Position numbers and translations under genes: made by a program
Shown here: positions 9,924-51,440 of the stretch, in pieces
Position numbering within the stretch: the first letter of the stretch is position 1
Layout: the number at the start of each line of letters is the position of its first letter
NCBI GenBank assembly: GCA_963674755.2
Contig: CAXXVS010000003.1
Span: 480,001 to 544,000 of the forward strand
DNA from: Desulfobacterales bacterium
GTDB taxonomy: Bacteria > Desulfobacterota > Desulfobacteria > Desulfobacterales > UBA5852
Direction: 5' to 3'
Length of the DNA stretch: 64,000 nucleotides
The notes under the pieces: generated by a model
What the model saw: only the letters and a program-made list of their open reading frames with translations
What the model was told of the DNA's origin: nothing
Database searches by the model: none

Positions 9924-11081
9924 TTAGGCCCGGACTTCTTCCTTAACACCAATCGTGATCTTATAAAAGATGGTCAGGATCAGGGCACCAACGGCGTAGA
10001 CACCGATGGTGATCATCACCTCGGGGAAGGTGGGCATGTATTCATGGACCTGGTGCAGCGGGTTAGGCACGAAACCGCCCGAGATCAGCCCGAGCCCCTT
10101 GTCGATCCAGGCGCCTACGAACAGCATGACACAGGCCACTGCCAGAACACCTTCGTTATGACGCGTAACGGGCGGAATCATCAGAACCAGAGCGAGCACC
10201 ATCAATGCCATGGAGGTCCACATCCAGGGAACGAGGACGCCATGCCCGTTGATTCCCATGAACAGATATTTGATATGGTCCATGTGCTCCGGAATGCCGC
10301 TGTAAAAGGCCACAAACAACTCACAGCCAAAGAAAAACAGGTTGGTGATAAGGGCATAAGTGGAAATTTTGGCCAGGGTTTGGATCTGCTCCCGGCCAGG
10401 ATCAAAGTTCGATACCCGCCGGATAACCAAGCTCAGCAGAATCAGCAAGGCCGGTCCTGCGGCGAAAGCCGAGGCCAGGAAGCGCGGTGCCAGGATCGCC
10501 GTCAGCCAGAAGCCGCGGCCGGGCAGGCCGCAGTAAAGAAAGGCTGTCACGGTGTGAATGCTGATGGCAAAGGGAATGGACAGGTAAATCAATGGCTTGA
10601 CCCACATTGGATAATGGGTGCCGTTGCGTTCGGCCTGCAATACGTTCCAGCCGATTATCAGGTTGAGGAGCAGATAGCCGTTGAGGACAAGCATGTCATA
10701 GAACAGCATTGAGCGGGGCTGAGGGTTCAGAATGACATTCAAGACCCGCATGGGCTGCCCCAGGTCGACCAAAACGCTCAGCATACAGACGATCAGCGAG
10801 GCGATGGCCAGAAATTCCCCCATGATGGTGATTCGACCGAAGGCCTTGTAATTGTGCAGGTAATAGGGCAATACCACCATCACGCCACCGGCGGCGACAC
10901 CCACCATATAGGTCAGCTGGGCGATGTAAAATCCCCAGGACACATCCCGACCGAGGCCGGTGATGCCGAGACCGAATTTTAGCTGCCACAGATAAAACCC
11001 GAATCCCACGCCGATCACGGCCAGCAGGAAAACGATCCATCCGTAGTACTTTTTGTCTCCTTTAATCGCATATTCAAGCAT
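9924..11081 (-). CDS. dsrP: DsrP, NrfD-family membrane subunit
   Basis: Multi-TM protein with DVSWGFYIA, DLGQP, SIHTVTAF, LAPRFLASAF; last gene of the dsr operon. Confidence 0.95.
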   Translation of the reverse strand: MLEYAIKGDKKYYGWIVFLLAVIGVGFGFYLWQLKFGLGITGLGRDVSWGFYIAQLTYMVGVAAGGVMVVLPYYLHNYKAFGRITIMGEFLAIASLIVCMLSVLVDLGQPMRVLNVILNPQPRSMLFYDMLVLNGYLLLNLIIGWNVLQAERNGTHYPMWVKPLIYLSIPFAISIHTVTAFLYCGLPGRGFWLTAILAPRFLASAFAAGPALLILLSLVIRRVSNFDPGREQIQTLAKISTYALITNLFFFGCELFVAFYSGIPEHMDHIKYLFMGINGHGVLVPWMWTSMALMVLALVLMIPPVTRHNEGVLAVACVMLFVGAWIDKGLGLISGGFVPNPLHQVHEYMPTFPEVMITIGVYAVGALILTIFYKITIGVKEEVRA

Positions 11082-11088
11082 GGCCACC

Positions 11089-11889
11089 TCATATGATGTA
11101 GTAAACCGCAGGGCCGGTCCCGAGGGCGACCTTGCGGCGAATGGTATAGTGTTTGCTCAATACTTCCCGTATTTCAGAGTGAGGGTCTCCCAGATCACCG
11201 AAGACCAAGGCCCCCTCGGAGGCTTCCACACAGGCGGGCATTTCCCCTACCGCCAGACGCTCTGCGCAGAAGTTGCATTTTTCGACGACACCCTTGGTGC
11301 GGGTGGGGAATTTCGGATTGAGCTTGTCAATGAAGGGTCGCGGGTCGCGGAGGTTAAAGCTGCGCGACCCGTAGGGGCAGGCCGCCATACAGAAGCGGCA
11401 GCCGATGCAGCGGTGATAATCCATCATGACAATGCCGTCGGCCCGTTTAAAGGTGGCCTTGGTGGGGCAGGCCTGGGTGCAGGGAGGATCTTCGCAGTGG
11501 TTGCAGAGCACCAGGAAGGGGCGCTCTTCGACCGCTTCGTCCATATAATTCGAGCCCAACCCCGGGAAAGCATTATGAAAATGGGTTTCCCAAATCCACT
11601 TGATTTCCTGGCGTAGGGCAACTTTTTCACCGACCTTGGCAGCGGTAATGTAGGGTACGTTGTGGGCCGTGTGGCAGGCTTCGATCATGCGCTCGATACG
11701 TGCATGGTCCAGCTTGGCCGTGTCGATGACCATCCCCCACTGTTGGGCGGTCAGAGCGTCTTTCCCCTTGCGCACATAGGGCTGGCCGCCATGCCCCTCA
11801 GCGGCGGCGGCATCGATGACCCCGGCCGTGCCCATCCCCAAGGCGGCAACGCCGGCGATTTTAAGAAATTGTCTCCTGCTGTCTTCCAT
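11089..11889 (-). CDS. dsrO: DsrO, periplasmic Fe-S subunit
   Basis: Tat signal SRRQFLK; CNHC..PPC...CP, CIGCRFC...CP, KCNFC. Confidence 0.95.
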   Translation of the reverse strand: MEDSRRQFLKIAGVAALGMGTAGVIDAAAAEGHGGQPYVRKGKDALTAQQWGMVIDTAKLDHARIERMIEACHTAHNVPYITAAKVGEKVALRQEIKWIWETHFHNAFPGLGSNYMDEAVEERPFLVLCNHCEDPPCTQACPTKATFKRADGIVMMDYHRCIGCRFCMAACPYGSRSFNLRDPRPFIDKLNPKFPTRTKGVVEKCNFCAERLAVGEMPACVEASEGALVFGDLGDPHSEIREVLSKHYTIRRKVALGTGPAVYYII

Positions 11890-12273
11890 TACTTGGTCTC
11901 CTTCGGATTTTCGATATGGCAATCCCAGCAGTAAGGTTCAATGGAGGTGTATAGATGACATCGGTCACAGAATTCAGCGGTGTTGGAATGGCAGTCCAGA
12001 CAGGTGTTGGACAGGCTCATGTTGAATTCTTTGCCCTCGGCATTGACATAGATCCGTTCCCCATCCCGCACAACCGCATTTCGCCATGTGTTCAATAGCT
12101 GCATATGATTGGCGATCATCCAGTCGGTATCCCGCACGCATTTTTCGGCGGCCTTAGCCTTGGGGGTCAGCACTACCTCGGGTGCCGGCACTTTGGCTTT
12201 GAACATGTTGAACCAGAACGGAGATGTCGCCACGATAAAAAAGATTATGATTCCCGCGATGATTTTACCTTTA

Positions 12274-12281
<8 letters not shown>
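11889..12281 (-). CDS. dsrJ: DsrJ, triheme cytochrome c
   Basis: N-terminal anchor; KCV...M...HM; CLDCH, CDRCH, CWDCH. Confidence 0.95.
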
Positions 12282-13908
<1,627 letters not shown>

Positions 13909-13914
13909 TATGTC

Positions 13915-14925
13915 TTACTCCTTTTTATCCACAGGCAGTCCAGCCTCGATCATTTTTTCCCTGAAATCATCCTCATACTCTTCGTAGGTATGAATTTTTA
14001 CCGGGTAGTTCCATGGATTGACATGGCGAACGGCGCGGGAATTGTTGGCCATGTTGCGCGTGGGGCTCAGGAAAATACCGCCCATATGCATCAGCTTGCT
14101 CCAGGGGAAATACATCAGCAGCACGCTGACAAAAAAGAGATGAATGTAGAAAATGGAACCGATGGCCTGCATTTTGTCGATGGTCGGCAGGCTGAAGGTC
14201 ACCAGGCCGTAAGTCAACTCTTTGGCGTCGATCAGATTGATCTTGGCGAAATAGCGCATGAAGATGCCGGTAAACGCGATGCCAAAAATCAGGAACAAGG
14301 GAAAATAGTCGGATGCCAGCGATATCATCCGGATATTGGGCAGGTAGACGCGACGCAGAAACAAAAAGAGAACCGTGCCCAGCAGAACGAAGCTCGACAT
14401 GGAAATGACCGGTTGGCCGACCTGGATGAACGTGTCTATTTTTTCGAGAATCTCAAATGGCAAGGGCAGGGGGTCCAGAAAAAAGCGGGCGTGTCGCAGC
14501 AGGACCACCAGAAAGGTGTAATGAAAGGCCAGGGCGAACAGCCAGAGCCACAGCTCCAGGTCGTAGCTGATGCGACCGTCCGGGTTGAGCCGCATGCGGG
14601 TATTCCGGAAGAGGGACCGAAAGGTCACCACCTCGAAGAACATCCGGGCGACCACGCCCTTGCCGGTAAAGGGGTTGTCGATGGTGTTGGCTTTAATCCA
14701 AGGCAGCGATTTGGCCTGGCCGGCCGTGGTGGGAATCCGGAAAGGTACCGTCGAGCGCGCCCAGTCCATCATGCGGATGAAAAAACCGACCAAGAAAACG
14801 ACCACCGCGATGTATGGCAGGATCACGCCGAAGAGCACCTGCAACCCGAGGATGTCGCATCCCACCCAGGCGATCAGTGCCAGAGCCCCAACGGCTAAAA
14901 GGGAATAGAAATACTTAACATTCAT
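13915..14925 (-). CDS. dsrM: DsrM, NarI-family cytochrome b
   Basis: PFRIPTT, FH...RH, HLFF...FPWSKLMHM, PTRN. Confidence 0.95.
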   Translation of the reverse strand: MNVKYFYSLLAVGALALIAWVGCDILGLQVLFGVILPYIAVVVFLVGFFIRMMDWARSTVPFRIPTTAGQAKSLPWIKANTIDNPFTGKGVVARMFFEVVTFRSLFRNTRMRLNPDGRISYDLELWLWLFALAFHYTFLVVLLRHARFFLDPLPLPFEILEKIDTFIQVGQPVISMSSFVLLGTVLFLFLRRVYLPNIRMISLASDYFPLFLIFGIAFTGIFMRYFAKINLIDAKELTYGLVTFSLPTIDKMQAIGSIFYIHLFFVSVLLMYFPWSKLMHMGGIFLSPTRNMANNSRAVRHVNPWNYPVKIHTYEEYEDDFREKMIEAGLPVDKKE

Positions 14926-15011
14926 TGACCTTTACCTCACTTTTGGGTTCCGGCAACAGTAGCGATGGTCTCTGTTCCGGAAACCGCCTTTAAAATTAAA
15001 AGGTGATGATA

Positions 15012-15551
15012 TTAAGAGACCCCGGAATCCGGTTTCATGTCCGGATTTTCGCGCACCAGTCCTGCACGAGCAAAGGCCCGGTATATTTTGCTTTGTTCTT
15101 CGGTGGCCTTCATACTGTATATTTTTTCACGGCAACGTATAAATATATCAAAGGCGATCAGCAGCAGCCGGTCGATGCGCTCTTCGAAAATCAGCAGTTG
15201 TGATTGCGTATCGAAATCTTGCAGTTTACCTTTCAATGCTCGGCGGATGATCTTTTTCAGGTCAAGGATGAAGGCGGTGGCTTGGGAGGGGGTGAACATG
15301 GTCTGGACGGCGCGGATACGAATCAGCGCGTCCAAATGGTGGGCGAGTACCTCGGGGTCGGCGTCGGCTAGGAGCTCATCCAGGACCCTTTCCAGGGTTT
15401 GACGCGATGTTCCGCCGACCGGATTGGCAAACATATCCTTGTTGGATTTAAGGAAACGGGCGGTATCGGGCGGATAGGTACCGGCCAGGACCGCAAACCA
15501 ATCTTTCGCGATTTGCGTTTTATATTTCGCTATTCGATGTTCCAGCCTCAT
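15012..15551 (-). CDS. dsrT: DsrT (RsbRD N-terminal-like domain protein)
   Basis: W....TYP, FANPVG, IRIRAVQ..PSQA motifs; directly upstream of dsrM. Confidence 0.85.
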   Translation of the reverse strand: MRLEHRIAKYKTQIAKDWFAVLAGTYPPDTARFLKSNKDMFANPVGGTSRQTLERVLDELLADADPEVLAHHLDALIRIRAVQTMFTPSQATAFILDLKKIIRRALKGKLQDFDTQSQLLIFEERIDRLLLIAFDIFIRCREKIYSMKATEEQSKIYRAFARAGLVRENPDMKPDSGVS

Positions 15552-21520: not shown

Positions 21521-23530
21521 TCAGATCGCCAGCCCAGCCCTGAAACCACTGTGCATGGCCTCGAAAGCCGTGGCCACCTGGTCTGCATCGCCCACGGTGG
21601 TATAAGGGATTTGTAACTTTTCCAGGGTGGCCGCAAGGGGGTGAAACGGCTGGGTGCCGACCCCCAGAACCACCGTGTCCGCCGGGAGTTCCTGCCGACG
21701 GCCGTTTCCTGTTTCGACCATGACGCCGTCCGGTGTGATTTCCAGGGCCTTGGTGGCGGGCATCACCTTCACAGCAGTGCGCTGCATATCCTGAAGTAAG
21801 GTCCAACGCGTGGTTTTACCGAGCCCCTGTCCGATGCGGTCGATCATTTCGATCAAGGTCACCTCTTTGGTCCCATTGACGGCCAGCTCATAAAGGTCCT
21901 CGATCGGTTCGGCTTGGTTGACCATGAGAAATTTGAGGGCTTCACCGGAAAGGGTGCCCCGTTCAGCCAGAAAAAGGGCCGTCTCCACCCCCACGGCGCC
22001 GCCCCCGATGACAACCACCCGCCGGCCCGTACGAACCCGATGGCGCAGTATATCCCAGGCCTGGACGACATGGTCTCGGTCAATACCCGCAATGGGAGGT
22101 GTGATCGGCTGGCCGCCGGTGGCCAGGATGACATGGTCAAGGCGATCTTTTAGAAACTGCTTTTCATCCACGGTTGTATTCAGATGAACCTTCACCGGAC
22201 TGATGGCCACCTGGTTTGCCAGATCCCGGGCCAGTTCGGCAAATTCATTACGGCCCGGAGGGGCCGCGGCCAGATGGAGCTGTCCCCCGAGCTGATCGGA
22301 TACTTCATACAGATGGACACGATGGCCTCGTTCGGCAGCTGTCAGGGCCGCACGCATGCCGGCGGCCCCGCCGCCGACGACCGCAACCACCTTGGGTGTT
22401 GCGGCCTGGGCCATTTCCCGGCATTCAGCCTCATGGCCGGCTTTAGGGTTGCAGAGGCATTCCACACTCTTGAGTTTGAACAGGTTGTCAAAGCAGCCCT
22501 GGGCACAGGCCACGCAATGGACGATTTCCGTTTCCCGGTTTTGACGGGCCTTTTCAGGAAGGTCAGGGTCGGCAATCAGGCTGCGTCCCATGGCGACCAT
22601 GTCGCACATGTCATCCAGGAGCAAATCCCGGGCCGTGGCCGGATCATTGACACGATGACCGTAAATAACAGGAATCGTCACCCGGGTCTTGATGGCGCGC
22701 GCCAGATAGGCGAAGGCGCCACGGGGAACGGCTGTGGTGATCTGGGGTACGCGGGCTTCATGCCAGCCGACATTGATGCTCAGCGCATCGACGCGGCCTG
22801 TTTCCTGCAACGCGCGGGCGTAGGTCTGCAATTCGCGGCGATCCTGTCCGCCCTTCATGAAGTCATTGCCGTTCATGCGGACGATGACGGGAAAATGCGG
22901 GCCGACCGTGTGCCGTATGGCCTGCATGACTTCAAGGCCGAAGCGCATGCGGTTTTCCAGCGAACCGCCATATTCGTCTTCCCGCTGGTTGGTCAGGGGG
23001 GACAAGAATTCACTGATCAGATAGCCAGTGCCGCTCAGGATTTCCACGGCATCGAAACCCGCCGCCTGGACGCGGCCGGCAGCCTGGGCAAAACGTTCGA
23101 CAACCGTTCGAATTTCCGGGATGGTGAGGGCGCGCGGAGTTTCTTTGGTCATGCGCGAGGCGATGGCCGATGGTGCCACCGGTTGTTGCCCGTTGAGAAA
23201 AAAAGAGAAATTGTAGCGGCCGGCATGGTTGAGCTGCACCGCGGAACGCGCTCCGTTTTCCTTGATGGCTTTGGCCAACCGGGACAGGCCGGGAATAAAT
23301 GTATCTTTATGGGCCCCGATGTTGGTGGTATTGCCGGAAAACTCGTCCACTGTGGCATAACCGACGCAAATGAGACCTGCGCCGCCCCGCGCCCGTTCGG
23401 TATAAAAGGCCACCAAGGGGTCGCTCACTTCGAAATCGACGGCCATGCCTAGATGCATGGCCGGCATGTAAATCCTATTTTTAACATGCAACTGGTTGAT
23501 CATGATCGGTTCAAAGATGGGATCCCTCAT
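21521..23530 (-). CDS. NADH:flavin oxidoreductase, 2,4-dienoyl-CoA reductase (FadH)-like
   Basis: OYE barrel (ERARGG, QLNHAGR, GYLISEFLSP..N.R.DEYGG), CVACAQGC..C Fe-S motif, two GxGxxG motifs. Confidence 0.9.
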   Translation of the reverse strand: MRDPIFEPIMINQLHVKNRIYMPAMHLGMAVDFEVSDPLVAFYTERARGGAGLICVGYATVDEFSGNTTNIGAHKDTFIPGLSRLAKAIKENGARSAVQLNHAGRYNFSFFLNGQQPVAPSAIASRMTKETPRALTIPEIRTVVERFAQAAGRVQAAGFDAVEILSGTGYLISEFLSPLTNQREDEYGGSLENRMRFGLEVMQAIRHTVGPHFPVIVRMNGNDFMKGGQDRRELQTYARALQETGRVDALSINVGWHEARVPQITTAVPRGAFAYLARAIKTRVTIPVIYGHRVNDPATARDLLLDDMCDMVAMGRSLIADPDLPEKARQNRETEIVHCVACAQGCFDNLFKLKSVECLCNPKAGHEAECREMAQAATPKVVAVVGGGAAGMRAALTAAERGHRVHLYEVSDQLGGQLHLAAAPPGRNEFAELARDLANQVAISPVKVHLNTTVDEKQFLKDRLDHVILATGGQPITPPIAGIDRDHVVQAWDILRHRVRTGRRVVVIGGGAVGVETALFLAERGTLSGEALKFLMVNQAEPIEDLYELAVNGTKEVTLIEMIDRIGQGLGKTTRWTLLQDMQRTAVKVMPATKALEITPDGVMVETGNGRRQELPADTVVLGVGTQPFHPLAATLEKLQIPYTTVGDADQVATAFEAMHSGFRAGLAI

Positions 23531-23602: not shown

Positions 23603-23620
23603 CTTAAGCATATGCTTAAG
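23603..23620. promoter_or_regulatory. Perfect 18-bp palindrome, putative operator
   Basis: CTTAAGCATATGCTTAAG, about 75 bp upstream of the oxidoreductase start. Confidence 0.6.
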
Positions 23621-23716: not shown

Positions 23717-23752
23717 AAAAGAAAACGGTTATTCGCGAAGCGAATAACCGTT
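23717..23752 (-). terminator. Intrinsic terminator
   Basis: 13-bp perfect stem AACGGTTATTCGC/GCGAATAACCGTT followed by TTCTTTT on the minus strand. Confidence 0.8.
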
Positions 23753-23791
23753 AAGGAGGAAACCTTATATGAAAGGTTAGGTTAGGTTGGC
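23717..23791 (-). ncRNA. Candidate sigma54-dependent small RNA (~75 nt)
   Basis: Bounded by a -24/-12 promoter and an intrinsic terminator; contains a short hairpin and an unpaired UCCUCCU; no ORF on this strand. Confidence 0.6.
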
Positions 23792-23801
23792 CATAGGTAA
23801 A

Positions 23802-23817
23802 AGCAAACAGCATGCCA
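23802..23817 (-). promoter_or_regulatory. Sigma54 promoter
   Basis: TGGCATGCTGTTTGCT (GG-N10-GC). Confidence 0.75.
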
Positions 23818-23827
23818 AATTTGCTTA

Positions 23828-23840
23828 TAAGTGTTTGATA
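23828..23840 (-). promoter_or_regulatory. IHF consensus site
   Basis: TATCAAACACTTA matches WATCAANNNNTTR; a second match AATCAAGATGTTA lies at 23975-23987. Confidence 0.55.
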
Positions 23841-24152
23841 AAATATATATTGCAACAATTTCAATTGGTTATAAATTTTCGGCATGACTTTTTGTGTCAA
23901 CTCCAAACTGGAAAACGTTCCGAGTGGTGCCAGAAAATTCAAAAATATTAACCTCTCTTTTTCCCATATATCGATAACATCTTGATTAAACAAATACTTA
24001 TCATTATAAGCCCGAAAGTTCAAAAATTTGAACCTCTCGCGCACGATCCGGCATGGATTGCATTATCTATATGATAATATTGTATAATTAAACTTATTCA
24101 ATTTTAATTGTTGGATAGACAAACTTCATGGTTGTTCTCAGGGCGGGTGTTT

Positions 24153-35832: not shown

Positions 35833-37245
35833 TTAGATATCGAAATACAGGAAGAACTCGTGGGGATGCGGTCTCAGGTTGACATCGTTGACCTCGTTGG
35901 CCGTTTTATATTCGATCCAGGTATCGATGACGTCCTGGGTGAACACATCGCCTTTGAGCAGGAAGGCATGGTCATCGGCCAGCGCGGCCAGGGCTTCCTG
36001 CAGTGATCCCGGCGCGGAAGGCACGTCGGCCAATTCTTCAGGCGACATGCCGTAGATGTCCTTGTCCAGGGGGTCACCGGGGTGGAGTTTGTTTTCGATG
36101 CCGTCCAGGGCCGCCATGAGCATGGCCGAGAACGCCAGGTAGCCGTTGCAGGACGGATCAGGTGTACGGAATTCGATGCGTTTGGCCTTGGGCGAGGCGG
36201 AATACATCGGGATACGGACCGAAGCACTGCGGTTGCGGCTGGAGTAGGCTAGGTTCACCGGCGCCTCGAAGCCGGGCACGAGCCGCTTGTAGGAGTTGGT
36301 GGTGGGGTTGGTAAACGCGCACAGGGCCCGGGCATGTTTCAGGATGCCGCCGATGGCGTAAAGGGCGGTATCGGAAACGCCGGCATAGCCGTCACCGGCA
36401 AAGGTGGGTTCGCCATCCTTCCAAATGCTGAGGTGGGTGTGCATGCCGGTGCCGTTGTCTTCAAAAAGCGGTTTGGGCATGAAGGTCACCGTATACCCGT
36501 TGCGGGTCGCCACGTTTTTCAGAACATACTTGAACCACATGAGTTGGTCGCCCATTAGCAGCAGCGGCTGGAAGCGCATGTCGATTTCCGATTGCCCGGC
36601 GGTAGCAACTTCATGGTGCTGGCATTCCACGGCAATGCCGAGTTCTTCCAAAACCAGCAGCATCTCGGTCCGTAGGTCCTGGAACTTATCCATTGGCGGA
36701 ACGGGAAAATAACCCTGTTTGTGGCGGGGCTTGTAACCCAGGTTAGGGCCCTCGTCACGGCCGGTGTTCCAGATGCCCTCAATCGAGTCGATTTCGTAGA
36801 AGGACCGGTGGCGGGAAGATTCGAAGCGAATTTCATCGAAAATGAAAAATTCCGCTTCCGGTCCAATAAAAGCCGTGTCGCCGATGCCAGTGCTCTTGAG
36901 GTAGGCTTCGGCCTTTTGGGCGATGTAGCGCGGATCCCGGGTGTAGGATTCCCGCGTCACAGGATCGACGATGTTCCCGATCAGGACAAGAGTCTCCGCC
37001 TCGAAAAAGGGATCCATTTTGGCCGTGGTCGGATCGGGAATGACAAGCATATCGCTGGCGTTGATAGGCTGCCAGCCGCGGATGCTGGAACCGTCAAAAC
37101 CGAACCCGTCCTCGAAGCTGGACTCGTCCAGTTCACACATAGGGACCGTAAAATGCTGCCACACGCCCGGGAAATCCAGAAAGCGGATATCCACAACCTT
37201 GGCGCCCTTTTCCTTTGCAAAAGCCAATACTTCTTTGGGTGTCAT
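35833..37245 (-). CDS. glnA: Glutamine synthetase type I
   Basis: [42 protein letters not shown]; adenylylation-site Tyr in DKDIY. Confidence 0.98.
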
Positions 37246-37356
37246 AATGCTCCTCCTTGTTGAGTCATAAAGTGTAAACTTGCTTCACATGCGGCAAACC
37301 TAAACCCATCAATGATGAAAATCGAATATCGCGAAGCACCTGATACAAACAACATC

Positions 37357-37713
<357 letters not shown>

Positions 37714-37748
37714 TCAGTTGGACCGGCCGGATTCGGCCGGTCGAAGCG

Positions 37749-39044
37749 TTAGACATTTTGAATTTCAAAGGCGCGCTCGCCATGCTGGGCATTGTCCAAG
37801 CCGGCCACCTCCTCGTCCTGATCAACGCGCAAGCCCCCGGTAATCAGTTTTGTAAGATAGGCGACGATCAATGTTCCCACGGCGGAAAAGGCAGCCGTAC
37901 CGAGGATCGAAAGAAATTGTACCCACAATTGTCCGGGGTTGCCGTAAAACAGGCCTTGGGCGCCCTCGGTGACGGCAGGATTGGCAAACAGGCCGGTGGC
38001 CAAAGCCCCCCATATGCCGCATAACCCATGGACGCCGAAGGCATCCAGAGAATCATCATAGCCCAGCATGTTTTTAAGTTTGGAAACACTGATATAGCCG
38101 AGCAGCCCGGCCAGAAGACCGATCAGGAGCGATGCCGGCATGTTTACAAAACCGGCCGCCGGTGTAATGGCCACCAATCCGGCCACGACACCGGAGGCCA
38201 GACCGAGCACCGTCGGTTTGCGCGTGACAAACCATTCCGCCCCCATCCAGGCCAGGGCTCCCATGGCGGCGGAAGTGTTGGTGACCAGAAAGGCCGAGCC
38301 TGCTACGCCGTCGGCGGCCAGTTCGCTGCCGGCGTTAAAGCCGAACCATCCGAACCAGAGCAAGGCCGCGCCCAGGGCCGTGAGGGAGATGCTGGAAGGA
38401 AACATGGCTTCCTTACCATATCCAATGCGTTTACCCACCACAAGGGAGAGTACCAGGCCGGCGACGCCGGCATTGATGTGGACCACGGTGCCGCCGGCAA
38501 AATCCAGGGCTCCCATGGCACCCATCCAGCCGCCGCCCCAGGCCCAATGGGCAACAGGCGAATAAACGAAGGTCAGCCATAGGGCTGCAAAAACGATCCA
38601 GGACGAAAATTTCATCCGGTCGACGATGGAGCCCAGCACCAAGGCTACCGTGATGCCGGCAAAGGTCATCTGGAAGAGCAGAAAAACATAGGTCGGAATG
38701 GTGCCCGAAAGGCTTTCCGCGCCAATGCCGTTGAGAAAGAGAAAGTCCAGACCGCCCACCAGCCCGGCCTGGCTGGGGCCGAAGGCCAGGGTATAACCCC
38801 ACATGACCCAGATGACGCTTCCCAGGCAATAGGCCACCATGGTCATGGCAATGGTATTGAGCAGGTTTTTGTAGCGGGACATGCCGCCATAGAAAAGCGC
38901 CAGTCCGGCCGGGGTCATCATCATGACCAGGGCCGTGGCAACGATCATCCAGGCGGTATCCCCGGTGTCGAGGCCGTCGGCGGCCAGCGCCGCCGCAGGT
39001 GCGGCCAATACGATAGCAAGAGCACTAAGCAGTTTTCTTGTCAT
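37749..39044 (-). CDS. amtB: Ammonium transporter
   Basis: GLALFYGG, FQMTFA, DFAGGTVVH, WFGWFGFNAGS, DD...FGVH. Confidence 0.96.
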   Translation of the reverse strand: MTRKLLSALAIVLAAPAAALAADGLDTGDTAWMIVATALVMMMTPAGLALFYGGMSRYKNLLNTIAMTMVAYCLGSVIWVMWGYTLAFGPSQAGLVGGLDFLFLNGIGAESLSGTIPTYVFLLFQMTFAGITVALVLGSIVDRMKFSSWIVFAALWLTFVYSPVAHWAWGGGWMGAMGALDFAGGTVVHINAGVAGLVLSLVVGKRIGYGKEAMFPSSISLTALGAALLWFGWFGFNAGSELAADGVAGSAFLVTNTSAAMGALAWMGAEWFVTRKPTVLGLASGVVAGLVAITPAAGFVNMPASLLIGLLAGLLGYISVSKLKNMLGYDDSLDAFGVHGLCGIWGALATGLFANPAVTEGAQGLFYGNPGQLWVQFLSILGTAAFSAVGTLIVAYLTKLITGGLRVDQDEEVAGLDNAQHGERAFEIQNV

Positions 39045-41694
39045 GGGTTTCACGTTCCTCTCCGCGGTTGTCGGTGTCCGTATCGTTTTCAGGCGGCAGG
39101 GCCGCCTGAATGGTCGTTTTAATGCGTTCCACCTGCCGGGGGTCGTCGACTTTCTGGCCGTCGAAATCCCGAACGTAGAAAACGTCCACCACCTGATCGA
39201 CGTTGGTGGCAATCTTGGCCACCCATACGTCGAGTTGGCAGCGAAACAGGGCATCCGTAATGCGAAAGAGCAGGCCGGGAAAATCTTCCGCAAAGACTTC
39301 GACGATGGTGAAAAAGCTGGAAGTGGTATTGTCGATTTTGATGCGCTGCGGGCGGTCCATGGCGGCCGGCCGCGGTGAGCGGTAGGCCCTCATGCGGGAC
39401 TGTAGCCGTGCGGACAAATCCAGCTCACCTTCCAGAGCCCGGAGCAGATGCTGGTGGGTGCGGTCCCATTTATCCGTTTCAAAAATCGGGTCGGGAGGCG
39501 GTTGCACCTTGAAAATATCCAGGGCGATATTGTTGCGCCAGGTAAAGATCTGGGCATCCAGGATGTTGATCTTGTTCAGCGTAAACACGCCTGCAATACG
39601 CGAGAAAAGACCCGGCTGGTCTTTGGCGCACAAAGTAACGATGCGCGTATTGGAGGTCATGGAAGGTTCGATTTCCCAGACAAAGCGTTCTTCGCCCAAG
39701 GTCCGATAGAGCCGGATATGCTCCTGAATGACCTCCGGCGGAACATTCTGCAGGTAACGCGGCGAGAGAATACTAAAAAGGGCTTCCACCTCCTTTTGCC
39801 GGCGCTTGGGGGTATGGGCCAGCAGGGCCTCGTGTTTGCGCTCCAAATCGGCAACGGCCTCACGCGAAGCCAGTTCGCCCTTTTCAAGCAAGTTGAGCAC
39901 TTTCAGGAAAAGGTCTTTCAACAGGGCCGCCGACCAGCTGTTCCAGGCCTTGGGGCCGGTGGCCATGGAATCGGCCACCGTGAGCAGGTAGAGCATCTTG
40001 AGGCGATCGACGTCGTTGATGCGGCGGGCGCAGTAAAGCGCTGTTTCTTCGTCGTTGATGTCGCGCCGGGCAGCGGTCTTGGCCAGCAGCAGATGCTCCC
40101 GCACCAGGAAGGCCGCGGTATCGACCGCCGCCGGCGGATAGCCTTTTTCGGTCAGAATGCTCTTTGCGAGGACTTCGCCCTTCTCGGAATGATGGCCCCC
40201 GGGTTGACCCTTGCCGATGTCATGCAGAAGCGCTGCCCAGAGCAATAGTTTGCGCTGTTTGAGGTCGTCATAGATCCGGCAAGCCAGATCGTCTGACCGG
40301 TCGTCGGAGGCGTCCGCAAATTGTTTAAGGGTTTTTACGGTGCGCAACAGGTGCCGATCGACAGGGTAAATGTGATATTCATCATATTGAATGCAGTTGA
40401 TGACGGCGTGGAATTCGGGGATGAAGCGCTCCAGAAGCCCGGCTTGAAGCATGGCATTGAGCACGTTGAAGGTCGGCGCCGGCGCCTGGAGAATTTTTTC
40501 GAAGGATTTCACGGCAACGCGCGAGTTGCGCAATTCTGCGTCGCAAAGATGTCCGAACTCGCGCACGATGCGAAGGGCTTCCACCCCCAAGGGCAGGCGC
40601 AGTCGGGCGCTTTCCTCGAAAATTTGCATCAACAGCAGGGGGAATTCCGACACGAGGCGTGCGGATTCAAACTGCAACGCATCCTTCACGATGACAATGC
40701 CGTCGATTTTGGTAACTTTGGCACGGCGTCGGAAGCGGCGTATCCGTTTCTCATACCCCTGTTCAAACAGGAACATGAGGTGCTGCTGCTTGATGAATTC
40801 CATCTGGCCGTGGAGATCCCCCAGGAAGCATTCCACCGGCTGTTGGCCATTCACCTTGCGGTAGCCCAGTGCTTTGGCGAGTTTGAGCTGATTCTCAAAA
40901 TGCAGCTGGTCGTATTTGCGGCCGTTGAGCAGGTGCAGCCGATTGCGCACATTGTTGATAAAGGCCAGGGCGTCCTCCAACTGGCCGTATTCCTCGTGGG
41001 ACAGGAAACCGAGATATTCCAGATCGCGGGCCTGGGTCAGGCCGGCCTTGATGCGGGCGATCCAGAGCATGGTATGGTAATCGCGCAGCCCCCCCTGGCC
41101 CTCCTTGAGATTGGGTTCCAGGAGATAGGCTGAATCGCCGAACCGTTCGTGGCGGGCCTGGTTGGACTCCACCAGCCAGTCGACCACCTTGCGGGCATGC
41201 CGCAGGACCACTTTCTGGCGCAGCTGTTGGGTGAGGGACGTATAGAGCCGGGACATGCCGCAAACAAAGCGGGCGTCGAGCAGCGGTGTCATAATTTCAT
41301 AATCTTTACCGGCCAGAGAAAGACATTCTTTCAATGATCGGGTGGCGTGTCCCACATCCAGGCCGATGTCCCACAGAGGATAGACAATTTCCCGGATTAG
41401 CCCCTCGGCGGCATCCGGGACCCGTTTTTCAAACAGAATCAACAGGTCCACATCGGAGTGCACGCACTGGTCGCTGCGGCCATACCCGCCCAGAGCGATA
41501 ATGGCATAGGGATTGCGGGTGATGTTCATGCGCGGGCCGATGGCGCTGGTTTCGAAGCTGGTGCGGAAGTACTCGTCCACAAGCCCCGCCATGGCATGCA
41601 TGAACGCCGGCGCAGCCGTTCGCGGTAGTTCGCGGATCAGGCGGTTGCGGCCCGTTTCGAGAACTTTGGCCGCATTTGGTTCGGAATTTGCCAT
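39025..41694 (-). CDS. glnD: [Protein-PII] uridylyltransferase
   Basis: GGYGR..SDVDL, EPNLKEG.GGLRD, LLHDIGKG, two ACT domains. Start moved to ATG 41694. Confidence 0.95.
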   Translation of the reverse strand: MANSEPNAAKVLETGRNRLIRELPRTAAPAFMHAMAGLVDEYFRTSFETSAIGPRMNITRNPYAIIALGGYGRSDQCVHSDVDLLILFEKRVPDAAEGLIREIVYPLWDIGLDVGHATRSLKECLSLAGKDYEIMTPLLDARFVCGMSRLYTSLTQQLRQKVVLRHARKVVDWLVESNQARHERFGDSAYLLEPNLKEGQGGLRDYHTMLWIARIKAGLTQARDLEYLGFLSHEEYGQLEDALAFINNVRNRLHLLNGRKYDQLHFENQLKLAKALGYRKVNGQQPVECFLGDLHGQMEFIKQQHLMFLFEQGYEKRIRRFRRRAKVTKIDGIVIVKDALQFESARLVSEFPLLLMQIFEESARLRLPLGVEALRIVREFGHLCDAELRNSRVAVKSFEKILQAPAPTFNVLNAMLQAGLLERFIPEFHAVINCIQYDEYHIYPVDRHLLRTVKTLKQFADASDDRSDDLACRIYDDLKQRKLLLWAALLHDIGKGQPGGHHSEKGEVLAKSILTEKGYPPAAVDTAAFLVREHLLLAKTAARRDINDEETALYCARRINDVDRLKMLYLLTVADSMATGPKAWNSWSAALLKDLFLKVLNLLEKGELASREAVADLERKHEALLAHTPKRRQKEVEALFSILSPRYLQNVPPEVIQEHIRLYRTLGEERFVWEIEPSMTSNTRIVTLCAKDQPGLFSRIAGVFTLNKINILDAQIFTWRNNIALDIFKVQPPPDPIFETDKWDRTHQHLLRALEGELDLSARLQSRMRAYRSPRPAAMDRPQRIKIDNTTSSFFTIVEVFAEDFPGLLFRITDALFRCQLDVWVAKIATNVDQVVDVFYVRDFDGQKVDDPRQVERIKTTIQAALPPENDTDTDNRGEERETHDKKTA

Positions 41695-41740
41695 TTTTAC
41701 CTTTGGAGGTCTTATCGTGATAGACTGTATGTGGGCTTTG

Positions 41741-41756
41741 AGCAATTGTTGTGCCA
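41741..41756 (-). promoter_or_regulatory. Sigma54 promoter of glnD-amtB-glnB-glnA
   Basis: TGGCACAACAATTGCT. Confidence 0.8.
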
Positions 41757-41834
41757 TGGGCCGCTGTAGTCAACTATAATAATAATTACAGGCAGATATG
41801 ATGATAAGCCACAATACGTTAAAAACCTTCAAAT

Positions 41835-41878
41835 TACATTTATGTCTCGAAACGGCCCCATCAAATTACAAAAATGTA
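41835..41878. promoter_or_regulatory. Paired putative enhancer (bEBP) sites
   Basis: TACATTTATGTC (41835) and TACAAAAATGTA (41867). Confidence 0.65.
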
Positions 41879-42023
41879 TCCTTCTTCCTTAATTAAACGG
41901 TTTTTTCGGTGTGCCGTGAGGTGTGTGACGGGGAGCGCCCGGCTGGAGCCGCACGCGGGGAGTAAAGGTGTTAAGGCGGCCAGGCCCTTGTTTCGCAGGT
42001 GAGCGCGGGCCTGGTAAGAAAGG

Positions 42024-43358
42024 CTATCGTTTTGCCTCGACGGCCTGGATAGACGCTCTTAAAATGGAGACCATTTCGTCAATCTGTCCCTCGTCAATGG
42101 TGAACGGCGGGGCCAGCAGGATGTGGTCCCCGTGGATGCCGTCCACGCCGCCGTTACCCGGATAGGTGATAAGGCCCCGTTCGAAAGCCTGGCCGGCGAC
42201 CTTGATGTTCATCTGGCGATCGCGATCAAACCAGGCCCGGGTGGCTTTGTCCCGGACCAGCTCGATGCCGGCGAAAAGGCCCAGTCCCCGGATTTCCCCT
42301 ACGATGTCCAGGTTTTCAAGCTCGCCCAGTTTTTGGAGCAGATAGGCCCCCATTCGGCGGGAGCGTGCTATCAAGTCGTTTTCCTGAATATAGCGCAGCA
42401 CGGCAGCGCCAATGGCCGTGGACAGGGGGTTCTGCCCGTAGGTGTGGCCATGCACGAATACCCCCGATCCGTTTTTAATGGTGGTGTGAATGTCGTCTTT
42501 CACCATGACCGCCCCCAGGGGGGTGTAGCCCGAACTCAGCCCCTTGGCCATCACGATCAGGTCGGGGACGACCCCCCAGTTGTCAATGCCGAAATTGGTG
42601 CCGCAACGCCCGATCCCGGTCATGACTTCATCCGCAATGAGCTTGATGTCATATTCGTCACAAATTTGTCGGATGCGCTGCCAATAGCCATCCTTGGGAA
42701 CGACTGCCCCGGCCGTGGCCCCCACCACCGGCTCGGCGATGAAGGCGCACACCGATTCGGGCCCTTCGTGCTTGATGCAGCGTTCGAGTTCATCGGCGCA
42801 CTGCAGGTCGCAGGTTTCGGGCTTGGCCTTGAAGCTGCATCGATAACAATAGGCCGGTTCAATGTGCGGCGTGTGCTGAAAGATAGGCAGATAGTGGCTG
42901 CGCCGTACGGTATGGCCGCCCAGGGCCAGGGCGCCGGTGGTATTGCCGTGAAAGCTCGACCAGCGGGAGATAATCTTGTACTTGTCGGGCTGGCCGGCCT
43001 CCCGCCAGTACTGGCGCACCAGTTTGACGGCCGATTCCACGGCCTCGGAACCGCCGGACAGGAAATAGGTGCGCGTCAGGGATTTGTCGGGGGCGATCTG
43101 GTGGAGTAACTCCCCCAGCTCACAGGCGGCCGGGTTGGTAAAGTGGCTGCTGTGGACAAAGGGGACTTTTTGGAACTGGGTCTGCATGGCTTCCAGAATT
43201 TCGGGAACACAATGACCGATGCTGACCACGCAGGCGCCGCCGGAGCCGTCGATGTAGCGCTTGCCCGCCGTGTCCCAGATGTAAACGCCCTCCGCCCGGT
43301 CGGCCACAGGGTAAATCTTCTTCAAATTCCGGTAAAAGACATGATCGCAAGGTTTCAT
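42024..43358 (-). CDS. Class III PLP aminotransferase (YodT-like)
   Basis: YIDGSGGA, SGGSEA, SFHGNT, EPVVG, DEVMTGIGRCG, AKGLSSGY, HGHTY. Confidence 0.92.
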   Translation of the reverse strand: MKPCDHVFYRNLKKIYPVADRAEGVYIWDTAGKRYIDGSGGACVVSIGHCVPEILEAMQTQFQKVPFVHSSHFTNPAACELGELLHQIAPDKSLTRTYFLSGGSEAVESAVKLVRQYWREAGQPDKYKIISRWSSFHGNTTGALALGGHTVRRSHYLPIFQHTPHIEPAYCYRCSFKAKPETCDLQCADELERCIKHEGPESVCAFIAEPVVGATAGAVVPKDGYWQRIRQICDEYDIKLIADEVMTGIGRCGTNFGIDNWGVVPDLIVMAKGLSSGYTPLGAVMVKDDIHTTIKNGSGVFVHGHTYGQNPLSTAIGAAVLRYIQENDLIARSRRMGAYLLQKLGELENLDIVGEIRGLGLFAGIELVRDKATRAWFDRDRQMNIKVAGQAFERGLITYPGNGGVDGIHGDHILLAPPFTIDEGQIDEMVSILRASIQAVEAKR

Positions 43359-43464
43359 TTTTGTCCTCTTTGCAGCGCTATGCTGAAAGCAGTGTTCCAC
43401 TGCCGCCCCTGTTCGTCGACCCAAAGGTCATATCGGCCGCGACCCTGTAGCAGGTCGCGAGTGG

Positions 43465-44313
43465 TCAATCGATTTGCGCCAAAATGCGATCCTTATGATT
43501 CGGATTCAGCGCGAGGATCCGCCGGGCGTCCTCCGGGGATGCGATCTCACGCCCCATCAAGCGGGCGATAGCGGCGACCTTTTCCACCAATTGGGCGTTG
43601 GTGGCCAGGGTTCCGTCAGGCAGCTGCAAGTTGTCTTCGATACCGACGCGGACATGGCCGCCCATGGCAATGGCCGCCGTCGCCAATGGCAGTTCGGCCT
43701 GGCCGATGCCAGCCACCGTCCAAGTGGAATCCGGCGGCAGGGAATCCGCCAGGAAAACCAGGTTTCTGACCGTGCCCGGCATGGAACCGGGTGCGCCCAG
43801 CACAAAATCAAAGTGCAGGGGGAGCGCCAGAAACCCTTTTTTAACTAGGTGCAGAGCATTGCTGATCATACCGGTTTCGAATACCTCGATTTCCGGTTTG
43901 ACGCCGGTATCGCGGAATACGCCAGCCAGAAAGGTAATGAAATCCGGCGCATTTTCATAGACGACGCCCGGCAGGTTATTGGAGCCTGTGGTAAACGAGG
44001 CCATTTCGGGTAACAGCCGCACCGGGTTGGCGCGCGCCTCCCAATCCTTTCCGGCCCGGGCGCCGGTGGACAGCTGGATGATCACATCTGGTGTGCGCGC
44101 CTTGATTCGGCGCACCGTATCCTTGAAAACCCTCAAATCAAGCGTCGGTTTTCCCAGGTGATCCCGTGCATGGACATGGAAAACGCTGGCTCCGGCCGCA
44201 ACGCAGCGGTTTACGTCGGCCGCAATTTCTTCCGATGTGACGGGCACATGAGGCGTTTGCTCCCTTGTCGGTACATTGCCCGTCAAGGCCACGGTAATGA
44301 TCAGCTTTTCCAT
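43465..44313 (-). CDS. Beta-keto acid cleavage enzyme (BKACE/DUF849, Kce family)
   Basis: IITVALTG, HVHAR, STG, KPEIE, GGHVRVGIED. Confidence 0.93.
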   Translation of the reverse strand: MEKLIITVALTGNVPTREQTPHVPVTSEEIAADVNRCVAAGASVFHVHARDHLGKPTLDLRVFKDTVRRIKARTPDVIIQLSTGARAGKDWEARANPVRLLPEMASFTTGSNNLPGVVYENAPDFITFLAGVFRDTGVKPEIEVFETGMISNALHLVKKGFLALPLHFDFVLGAPGSMPGTVRNLVFLADSLPPDSTWTVAGIGQAELPLATAAIAMGGHVRVGIEDNLQLPDGTLATNAQLVEKVAAIARLMGREIASPEDARRILALNPNHKDRILAQID

Positions 44314-44511
44314 AGGCCGTCTAATTGTCTATCCGGTAAGGATTGTCAACCTGAAATCAGGTTGCCGACAGGGGGGCTACGCCATTGGCCTTGACGGATA
44401 CCGGTTTGGGCCGGGTGAAAAGAGCCGGGGTCCGGGAGGCGTGCAAGGCGCTCCCCGCGAGTGGCGTTGGGAAGATGGAGATTAACGGGCCACGGATGAT
44501 TTTAATGAAAT

Positions 44512-44539
44512 AAGGACGCCCGCAACCGCGGGCGTCCTT
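44512..44539 (-). terminator. Probable terminator after second amtB
   Basis: 12-bp perfect stem AAGGACGCCCGC/GCGGGCGTCCTT with an AT-rich tail on the minus strand. Confidence 0.7.
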
Positions 44540-44628
44540 TCAGGGAGGATCGGGCCGGAGTGCTGGGATCAGGTTCCGGCCCCTGGCTTCGAATGAACGC
44601 TTGGGAGGCTCATTCATTCAGGCATATC

Positions 44629-45960
44629 TCAACTCTGGGCATAAGTAGAAGTCTCGAAGTCCGGGTAGGCGCTACCCCCGTGTTCAATGACGTCCAGGCC
44701 CTCGGTTTCCTCTTCGGGCGAAACTCGCAGGCCGATGGTGGCCGTTATGATTTTGAACATGATAAAAGCAATCCCAAAGGTATAGACAAAGCAGGCGGCG
44801 ATACCGATCAGCTGAACGCCGATGATGGTAGCGGTGGTGCCGCCGATGTTGAAGATGCCGGCCGCCAGGGTGCCCCAGGCGCCGTTGACGCCGTGAACCG
44901 AAACAGCGCCTACCGGATCGTCGATCTTGATTTTATCGATGAAGAGCACCGAGATCACCACGAGAACACCGGCGATGGCGCCGATGATGATCGCACTGGC
45001 AGGGGAGACGTTGGCGCAGCCTGCGGTGATGGCTACCAGACCGGCCAGGGCGCCGTTGAGGGTCATGCCCACTTCAGGCTTGCCGAACTTGATCCAGGAG
45101 GTGATCAAGGCTGTACACGCCCCGGCGGCAGCAGCCAGGTTGGTGTTGACGAAGATCATGGCGATGCTTTTGTCGGCGGTTGTGGTGGAGCCGGGGTTGA
45201 AACCGAACCAGCCTAGCCACAGAATGAAGACACCCAGGGCCGCCAGGGGCATGTTATGGCCCATAATGGCGCGGGGTTTGCCGTCCGGCCCGTATTTGCC
45301 GATGCGCGGACCCAGCACGATGGCGCCGGCCAGAGCGGCCCAGCCACCCACGGAGTGCACCACGGTGGAGCCGGCAAAATCGATGAAGCCCAGCCCTTCC
45401 AGCCAGCCGTTGCCATGGTACAGGCTGCCCCAGGCCCAACTGCCGAAGACCGGATAAATGACCGTACTGACGATGGCGCTATAGATCAGATAGCTGACAA
45501 ATTTGGTGCGTTCCGCCATGGCGCCGGAAACGATGGTGGCGGCCGTGGCGGCGAAAACCACCTGGAACATCCAGAAGGCCAGCACCCACGGATCACCGCC
45601 GGGCGTAAAATCACTGAGAAAAAATCCATCGGTGCCGAACCACCCGGTAGTGGTGGTACCGAACATGATACCGAAACCCACCGCCCAGTAGACGATGGAA
45701 CCCACGGAAAAATCCATGAGGTTTTTCATCAGGATGTTGATGGCATTCTTGGCGCGCGTAAAGCCGGTTTCCACCATGGCGAAGCCGGCCTGCATGAAAA
45801 AGACCAGGGCTGCAGCGATCAGAGTCCAGAGATAGTTGGCATGGGTCTGCACCAGGTCGATGGCCTCCTTATTGCTCAAAGCGGTCGGCACTTCATCCCC
45901 TGCCCAGGCACTGCCGGCTGTTGCCGCGATCAGTACGAGAATAAATATCAATCTCCTCAC
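44629..45960 (-). CDS. amtB: Ammonium transporter (second, divergent paralog)
   Basis: FFMQAGFAMVE, KNLMD, SGAMAER, DFAGSTVVH, DDPVGAVSVH. Confidence 0.95.
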   Translation of the reverse strand: MRRLIFILVLIAATAGSAWAGDEVPTALSNKEAIDLVQTHANYLWTLIAAALVFFMQAGFAMVETGFTRAKNAINILMKNLMDFSVGSIVYWAVGFGIMFGTTTTGWFGTDGFFLSDFTPGGDPWVLAFWMFQVVFAATAATIVSGAMAERTKFVSYLIYSAIVSTVIYPVFGSWAWGSLYHGNGWLEGLGFIDFAGSTVVHSVGGWAALAGAIVLGPRIGKYGPDGKPRAIMGHNMPLAALGVFILWLGWFGFNPGSTTTADKSIAMIFVNTNLAAAAGACTALITSWIKFGKPEVGMTLNGALAGLVAITAGCANVSPASAIIIGAIAGVLVVISVLFIDKIKIDDPVGAVSVHGVNGAWGTLAAGIFNIGGTTATIIGVQLIGIAACFVYTFGIAFIMFKIITATIGLRVSPEEETEGLDVIEHGGSAYPDFETSTYAQS

Positions 45961-46009
45961 GATGGCTCTCCTTATCTACTGTAGGTTGCTGTGCGTTGGC
46001 ACGAATTGA

Positions 46010-46378
<369 letters not shown>

Positions 46379-46420
46379 TCAGTGCGCGCAGCCGTTGAAT
46401 TGCTTTTGAGAGGGGTTTAA

Positions 46421-46436
46421 AGCATAGGCTGTGCCA
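46421..46436 (-). promoter_or_regulatory. Sigma54 promoter of glnK-amtB
   Basis: TGGCACAGCCTATGCT. Confidence 0.8.
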
Positions 46437-46527
46437 GATGAAATTGTGCGACCGAAAAAGAGTTTATGATATTGAATAAACAGCATAATTTAAATTTTAA
46501 GCGCTTAAGGGAAAAAGGGCTTTAAAT

Positions 46528-46569
46528 GACAATTATGTATATAATAGATATATTAATTACATTTTTGGC
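46528..46569. promoter_or_regulatory. Paired putative enhancer (bEBP) sites
   Basis: GACAATTATGTA (46528) and TACATTTTTGGC (46558). Confidence 0.6.
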
Positions 46570-46613
46570 ATTTTAAGTGGGGAAACATACAATATCGTTG
46601 ATTGCGAGGTGGA

Positions 46614-49523: not shown

Positions 49524-49558
49524 GGGATCCTCTATCGATCAGGAGATGGAAAGCGTCG

Positions 49559-50896: not shown

Positions 50897-51110
50897 GGGA
50901 ATCCTCCTTTTCATCAAATTATTTATATCGATAGCGCCCGTCTCCGCGTGGCATCAGAGGCGACTGCAGTGGATATACTGAAAAAACAGGGCAAGATCAA
51001 ATACGCCTTGATTCTTTTGGGAAAGATCAGCTATGGTAACGGTTCGCCTTTGCCCCAGGCTGACGGCATCTTCCTGATAATTCATTGGAAATTGGGGGAT
51101 TGTGAAAACA

Positions 51111-51153
51111 GACAAATTTGTCGATGTTTTTCCAGGTTAGCGACAATTTTGTT
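51111..51153. promoter_or_regulatory. Paired putative enhancer (bEBP) sites
   Basis: GACAAATTTGTC (51111) and GACAATTTTGTT (51142). Confidence 0.65.
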
Positions 51154-51240
51154 GTTGATAGACCGTCCTGCATGCGCCGGTTTCATTTGGTTCCCATCCA
51201 ACCTGTTGGTAACAAACAAGAATTCGGTGACGACGGTTCG

Positions 51241-51256
51241 TGGCACGGCCGTTGCT
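51241..51256 (+). promoter_or_regulatory. Sigma54 promoter of glutamate synthase operon
   Basis: TGGCACGGCCGTTGCT, full consensus. Confidence 0.85.
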
Positions 51257-51440
51257 TAGTACGCTAAGGCGCTTCGCTAAAATCGTATTCCCCTGACCGC
51301 CAGGCGGGTTTGCCTCAGGATGCGTTTTGCGGACGCCGCGTGGGCAATAGGTGCCTGATTTGCATGGAAAACAAATTATATAGTTATTTCGAAAAGTAAT
51401 CGGTCTCAGGAATCATTTCTGGCAAGGAGGATCGATCGTT

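Follow-up and report, generated by a model that had tools for sequence, protein, structure and literature searches.

The window, a 64,000-nt stretch of a Desulfobacterales contig, carries on its minus strand a compact unit comprised of a sigma-54 promoter, a predicted small RNA, and an intrinsic terminator, with putative activator sites further upstream (Table 1). Downstream of this unit is a FadH/OYE-type oxidoreductase gene (21521-23530), ahead of which lies a perfect 18-bp palindrome (23603-23620; CTTAAGCATATGCTTAAG) that is single in this genome, conserved in seven of eight relatives, and likely the operator of a repressor. Elsewhere in the window are what we take to be a DsrMKJOP-like operon with an RsbRD-like gene (9924-15551), consistent with a sulfate reducer, and, presumably, a nitrogen-assimilation cluster (35833-52571) of glnA, two PII genes, two ammonium transporters, uridylyltransferase- and adenylyltransferase-like genes, and glutamate synthase subunits.

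Table 1. Features of the small RNA unit and its upstream region (window positions).
Feature	Position	Strand	Remarks
Sigma-54 -24/-12 promoter	23803..23817	-	rpoN encoded in the genome
Predicted small RNA, about 75 nt	23717..23791	-	Ends predicted
5' AACCU x3 arm	23774..23788	-	Predicted partner: AGGUU repeats at -80 to -51 in the porin leader
Anti-start-codon arm UUUCAU	23769..23774	-	Pairs with AUGAAA
Anti-Shine-Dalgarno arm UUUCCUCCUU	23753..23762	-	Complementarity runs 5 nt further, into the terminator base
Intrinsic terminator, 13-bp stem and U tail	23717..23752	-	Stem 23752-23724, U tail to 23717
Activator (enhancer-binding protein) site 1, GTTCAA-N4-TTGAAC	24018..24033		Putative binding site
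Activator site 2, weaker copy	23937..23952		76-81 nt downstream of site 1; in 12 of 13 family loci
IHF-like site between activator sites and promoter	23859..23871		Fits the usual consensus at 12 of 13; partly conserved; putative function

The predicted RNA

An earlier note on this DNA had placed a -24/-12 element, a triple AACCU repeat, an anti-Shine-Dalgarno (anti-SD) stretch, and a 13-bp terminator in an AT-rich gap free of open reading frames. All four elements are indeed found on the minus strand and are conserved together. The gap is likewise AT-rich (31% G+C at 23800-24100 versus 58% genome-wide), but it is not strictly free of reading frames, being overlapped by two shadow ORFs (97 and 110 codons). 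The transcription start at 23791 is our assumption from the usual spacing of sigma-54 promoters. When folded, the 75-nt RNA gave -22.9 kcal/mol (z -7.6), with none of 200 shuffled sequences equally stable, and its predicted fold consists of a 6-bp hairpin and the 13-bp terminator, while the 5' AACCU arm is left unpaired at an opening cost of 0.0-1.7 kcal/mol. The hairpin (AACCUU/AAGGUU), to which the note had also drawn attention, does form in this RNA, but it is found in only two of the 63 members described below (this genome and its nearest relative), and is incidental.

Conservation and family definition

A BLAST search with 211 nt against 40 relatives returned ten strong matches (E 5e-13 or better) and two weak ones, with a pattern search adding a thirteenth. 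Seven of the ten strong matches start at the promoter and all ten stop at or just beyond the terminator, and such bounded conservation points to more than chance. Conservation in relatives, which the note had proposed as a check, was thus borne out, with the unit kept in 13 of 16 family relatives and a promoter-to-anti-SD pattern matching 85 of 251 Desulfobacterales genomes (9 of 251 for the reversed control). It was not found in the relatives G009, G011, and G012 (95, 81, and 70% complete, respectively), nor in G040 or G018. In G018 (L277), a terminator-like hairpin alone is left in the ancestral position after the regulator gene, with promoter and seed absent, and the porin leader keeps its repeat.

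The pattern gave 100 matches in the order, five of which were already in our set, and 70 of the other 95 were examined. From these, we excluded nine lacking a terminator or activator site, four further non-members, and eight of a different family, and the 49 kept, together with 14 family loci, make up 63 members in 60 genomes. In 49 of these members, 95% of the terminator is paired and 12 of its 13 pairs have changed on both sides (0 of 500 shuffles). A covariance model of the RNA alone found matches in 90 of 151 genomes at E 0.01, a count that includes training members and some false weak matches; the second match in this genome (C1:1015332, 40 bits), for example, lacks a promoter and is an ordinary terminator, so the weak matches among the 90 are partly false. 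Although the model is blind to the promoter, 22 of 23 inspected matches outside its training set have GG-N10-GC at the right distance and the remaining one GG-N10-GA, and an activator motif is near 22 of them. Scanning named genomes yielded 54 loci, of which 50 have a terminator; these overlap the other sets and are not independent of them. Most of their titles are of Desulfobacterales or unclassified delta-proteobacteria, and Desulfonema magnum is among them. Beyond the order, the palindrome, promoter, anti-SD stretch, and terminator were seen together in 8 of 18 regions around palindrome matches, and similar units occur in five families outside Desulfobacterales.

Some members deviate in structure or number. 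In genus g3 (L013, L014, and L035), the RNA has an added 5' hairpin of 6-7 bp ahead of the repeat arm. Several genomes carry two to three copies of the gene, every copy having a separate promoter and activator site, a situation known from the Qrr RNAs (L101/L144/L145 in G218, L285-L287 in G090, L120/L121 in G114, L284 in G065, and L134/L288/L289 in G105). Separately, a different sigma-54 small RNA family was seen in eight genomes (L109, L116, L117, L122, L138, L139, L148, and L149), in which an GGAAUGAAG/CUUCAUUCC stem carries an anti-SD loop, another anti-SD stretch is present, and the loop of the terminator is rich in C; it is without the palindrome, and absent from this genome. The latter (G000) does hold another candidate small RNA at C2:1719889-1719980 (plus strand), with a second sigma-54 promoter, a short pyrimidine-rich anti-SD stretch, and a strong terminator, for which the porin described below ranks 2307 and no clear target emerged.

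Against Rfam 15, no family, Qrr, MicF, VrrA, AbcR, GlmY, and Pxr included, reached its gathering score (best STnc390, 19.4 bits versus 50, E 0.64), and a scan of six further loci returned only an unrelated TPP riboswitch. Our literature search, which covered few subscription journals, found no paper describing this small RNA. Taken as a whole, the comparative evidence makes it very probable that this is a real, conserved, and uncatalogued sigma-54 small RNA gene.

A porin-like gene as predicted target

Searching this genome with the parts of the RNA revealed one second locus complementary to both arms. This is the leader of a minus-strand gene (G000:C1:48919-50388) for a protein of 489 residues with a signal-peptide-like start and a C-terminal Phe. 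No other gene of its family is present here, and no other gene matches the Desulfovibrio porin model (NF033939, DESULF_POR1; NCBIfam), though at 72.9 bits this match falls below the cut-off of 250. The protein does exceed the Pfam threshold for Alginate_exp (28.4 versus 25.2), and its Atlas neighbours (0.98-0.99) have 12% Alginate_exp and 14% Porin_4 among their members, and so Pfam and Atlas both point to a likely outer-membrane barrel. No relative of it was found in the PDB by sequence. It resembles the major porin DVU0799 (PMC5686591) in length, signal-peptide-like start, and C-terminal Phe, and we regard the target as a distant relative of DESULF_POR1 rather than a member, given the scores above.

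In the leader of the porin gene, five AGGUU repeats (-79 to -55) are followed by a GC hairpin (-45 to -22) and, at the ribosome site (-19 to -5), by a 15-nt perfect complement of RNA bases 30-44. The repeat array is unique to this leader in the genome (motif count 7, next 2). In a ranking of 6798 crudely called starts, the porin took first place with the 5' arm (-24.3, against a mean of -10.3 and an sd of 2.9) and again when both arms were combined (-53.4, next -44.6), and it was still first among the best 220 starts after correction for accessibility (-23.5, next -18.4). With the anti-SD arm alone, it was sixth of 6798, and 26th of 220 after accessibility correction, and these weaker ranks make other targets plausible. 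Moreover, freeing the last five paired bases from the terminator adds a cost of about 11 kcal/mol, so that of the 15 bases only 10 would pair readily. The nitrogen genes at which the note had seen matching ribosome sites are not favored as targets, with the anti-SD arm ranking glnA 1818th and the GltB1-type gene 174th of 6798.

A small lipoprotein-like gene with a purine-rich leader (G000:C2:1843933-1844256, minus strand) ranks 11th of 6798 for both arms, and may be a secondary target in the envelope. At C3:2335816, a third copy of AACCUAACCU was discarded because it has no matching start behind it, and the exact 12-mer CCGTTAAGGAGG was dropped as a target finder, as its second match was the porin in two genomes and a chance match in a coding region in six. 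An exchange of porin paralogues in the style of OmpF/OmpC was also rejected, as only G005 (L059) has a sigma-54-type promoter before a second porin, and this without the palindrome; the leader of that second porin has only one repeat. Outside the order, NF033939 detected a porin-like gene in only one of five genomes.

Co-variation of the RNA and the porin leader

Both the RNA and a porin leader were available for 30 genomes from 15 lineages (of 46 further genomes queried, 17 yielded the porin), with the paralogue picked by eye in G005 and G070 and the seed window set by hand for genus g3. Own pairs were favored over foreign pairs by -3.8 and -3.3 kcal/mol for the two arms (p 2e-5 and 5e-5), by -4.3 and -3.0 kcal/mol with one genome per lineage (15; p 2e-5 and 2e-4), and by -2.4 and -2.9 with this family also removed (p 9e-4 and 2e-3), whereas shuffled leaders gave -1.1+/-0.6 and -0.2+/-0.5. 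In these comparisons, RNA and leader change together over 15 lineages (permutation p about 1e-5 to 1e-4), although the p values are overstated because the lineages are related. Compensatory changes include CCUAAUCCUAA in the RNA with UUAGGAUUAGG in the leader (genus g3), AACCUAAUAA with UUAUUAGGUU (family f55), AAUGG with CCAUU (G140), and, outside the order, UUCUCUCCUU with AAGGAGAGAA (G405).

Exceptions were also found. Five genomes gave no support for a joint change of RNA and leader. G105, G154, and G034 show no pairing advantage of the own porin start over foreign ones, and in G028, G053, G128, G034, G154, G140, and G027, the own leader offers no better site for the 5' arm. Pairing predictions were fixed beforehand for five genomes, two of which (G040 and G018) proved to have no RNA; those for G032 (with one wobble) and G025 came true, and that for G036 failed; the G025 prediction involved the commonest seed, and a leader that belongs to a neighbouring porin-like paralogue.

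Activator sites and a candidate two-component system

At each of the 13 family loci initially inspected, the palindrome of site 1, which the note does not mention, lies 204-216 nt ahead of the -24 GG, in one locus with a mismatch. Here, the distance is about 207 nt; the site scores highest in the genome (30.8 bits, with 23.9 for the runner-up), and none of the others is close to a sigma-54 promoter. A wider palindrome regulon was discounted in this genome, where the five weaker sites all lie away from sigma-54 promoters and are mostly intragenic. A looser form of the motif accompanies 57 of the 63 members, but none of 12 set-aside loci and none of four chance matches from other phyla. As a separate observation, several exact palindrome copies occur in G523 and G337 (together L178-L183) and in G290 (ten copies) without a nearby sigma-54 promoter, some beside mobile-looking genes.

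In 26 of the 54 named-genome loci, one NtrC-type response regulator gene ends 180-394 nt upstream of the small RNA gene, which in these loci often faces a TPR gene; in Desulfonema magnum (L222), too, the unit comes immediately behind the regulator. The unit also directly follows an orthologue of this regulator in two genomes outside the order. Among the 44 activators of this genome, the best match to that regulator was G000:C3:89098-90471 in 15 of 15 tests (64-71%, versus at most 50% for the next activator). A histidine kinase gene (C3:87674-89101) precedes it, the outer domain of which resembles a single Cache domain (Atlas 0.94), and the divergent genes are, we presume, for pilus assembly. 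The regulator is present in 15 of 16 relatives, though in this family the small RNA gene is no longer adjacent to it. From the adjacency in relatives, we infer that this regulator and kinase are the activating pair and that the regulator binds the palindrome. With rpoN present, the unit shows what is expected of small RNAs driven by sigma-54 and an enhancer-binding protein, namely a -24/-12 element conserved at a fixed distance, palindromic sites, and an activator gene, the last being cognate as judged by adjacency in relatives.

Proposed mode of action and alternative readings

The RNA, as judged from its complementarity and co-variation, probably acts mainly to repress what is likely the main porin, through the leader repeats, ribosome site, and start codon. 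A signal would pass from the kinase to the regulator at the two sites, and a DNA loop to the sigma-54 promoter would then lead to synthesis of the RNA. Its open 5' arm would dock on the porin leader repeats, after which the SD and AUG would be covered and less porin translated. A trans-acting, sigma-54-driven RNA that blocks a ribosome site, in line with the translational regulator that the note had envisaged, is the best reading. Here, the anti-SD arm alone would be generic, and the 5' repeat arm would supply specificity and docking without Hfq; in fact, this 97% complete genome gave zero matches to Hfq (PF17209) and to ProQ (PF04352), with positive controls.

The two arms would bind the mRNA in crossed order, an arrangement that a single nested duplex cannot adopt, and the nested optimum, with the 5' arm on the repeats, instead places the anti-SD arm on an upstream SD-like element. 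This element (GGAGGUG, without a start codon) lies about 128 nt upstream of the porin start (L043 / G000:C1), and a counterpart at about -60 to -160 is seen in 35 of 41 porin leaders; it could be a stabilising or standby ribosome site. The nested co-fold, with a gain of about -20 kcal/mol, would leave the true ribosome site free, and the RNA would then alter mRNA stability or raise porin synthesis. We consider this quite unlikely, as pairing is stronger at the true site in each of 11 family genomes (-13 to -14, or -15 to -23 with the AUG arm, versus -10 to -11), and only the true site explains the conserved anti-AUG arm and the co-variation at the true start. Somewhat less improbable, though still unlikely, is that the same RNA broadly represses exported proteins with a strong SD and a Met-Lys-Lys start, the porin being merely the best target. 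Across the order, the 5' half of the RNA in most members is the complement of SD-spacer-AUG-AAG-AAA, with an anti-AUG CAU at fixed spacing in 48 of 63, and the multiple gene copies of several genomes fit as well. Moreover, 29 genes here have AAGGAGG and such a start, many of them signal-peptide-like, and a transporter-binding-protein-like gene ranks first for the anti-SD arm. However, ranks for most of the 29 genes run into the hundreds or thousands, the repeat array is confined to the porin leader, and the anti-AUG is lost in six of ten members of this genus.

Two further readings dispense with base pairing between RNA and porin mRNA. The shared repeats might be DNA sites of one transcription factor, and the unit a regulated promoter and terminator or a leader of the oxidoreductase gene. 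The latter lies downstream in 8 of 13 family loci, and joint change of both motifs would likewise be expected if the specificity of such a factor drifted. We regard this as very improbable, since the anti-SD and anti-AUG arms and the co-variation would go unexplained, and the repeats have a 5-6 nt period and are downstream of both predicted starts. A leader or attenuator does not fit, as the downstream genes vary, and the oxidoreductase gene is missing from 5 of 13 loci and otherwise mostly has its own conserved operator-like palindrome (seven of eight loci). The conserved signal might also be a small gene on the opposite strand, which reads as a perfect ribosome site and start in the same 48 members. 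Such a peptide gene is largely refuted, and barely credible, as its ATG is absent from the other 15, the remaining frames, of 1 to 58 codons, share neither length nor sequence, and the one here would have three codons.

Repression of the porin at its translation start thus remains our preferred reading. A bolder version of it, which we hold possible though doubtful, is that of a phylum-wide, chaperone-free switch, in which the sole output of the two-component system would be an RNA mimicking the complement of a whole translation start. Tandem landing-pad repeats, evolved by the porin leader in step with the RNA, would give specificity, and a crossed, pseudoknot-like two-site clamp (or several copies) would control outer-membrane permeability in sulfate reducers and their relatives.

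Relation to known systems

MicF (on ompF), MicA, and RybB are porin-repressing small RNAs, and Qrr with LuxO and GlmY with GlrR combine a sigma-54 promoter with an NtrC-type regulator. The circuit type is itself a familiar one, with an output like that of MicF or VrrA and an input like that of Pxr or Dv_sRNA2. On the output side, VrrA of Vibrio cholerae acts on ompA and, as described in the available text, works also without Hfq (PMC2628432), and our RNA, similarly, would base-pair with the 5' part of a porin mRNA and keep the ribosome from binding. Its predicted complementarity to a porin start, with compensatory change and the exceptions listed above, is likewise in keeping with porin-repressing small RNAs. 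Whereas the VrrA/MicF type depends on sigma-E or OmpR, sigma-54 and a dedicated activator would take that place here; our RNA also matched nothing in Rfam, neither Hfq nor ProQ was detected in its genome, and a second arm is directed at tandem leader repeats.

On the input side, a likeness within the same phylum is to the sigma-54 ncRNAs of Desulfovibrio vulgaris, where Dv_sRNA2 follows DVU0679 and another follows DVU0653, and where, in the accessible portions of these papers, a response regulator gene is followed by the sigma-54 RNA that it activates (PMC3333781, PMC4641369). The same portions of the two papers give no function or target for these ncRNAs, and the activator motifs (CGTGCG-N4-CGCACG and TGTCCGC-N4-GCGGACA types, from 15 of 20 ncRNA rows and compared by motif, not by RNA sequence) differ from GTTCAA-N4-TTGAAC here. 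Pxr of Myxococcus xanthus, a 108-nt RNA controlling development that is encoded after nla19, also has a sigma-54 promoter, an adjacent NtrC-type regulator, and occasional paralogues, but in the accessible account (PMC5568312) it has three stems, while our RNA is predicted to be one open strand with a terminator and shares no Rfam similarity with it. DseA of Desulfovibrio, described in the text available as a SAM-I riboswitch RNA, was set aside as unrelated.

Biological implications

If the proposed circuit is true, it would be the first small RNA with a named target, regulator, and binding site for a major group of anaerobic sediment bacteria. It would also show how a trans-acting RNA may find its target without Hfq or ProQ, by joining a generic anti-ribosome-site arm to a lineage-specific arm that is matched by repeats in the mRNA, with the co-evolution of arm and repeats being visible across families. 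Moreover, an uncharacterised, conserved two-component system would thereby be tied to the control of a porin.
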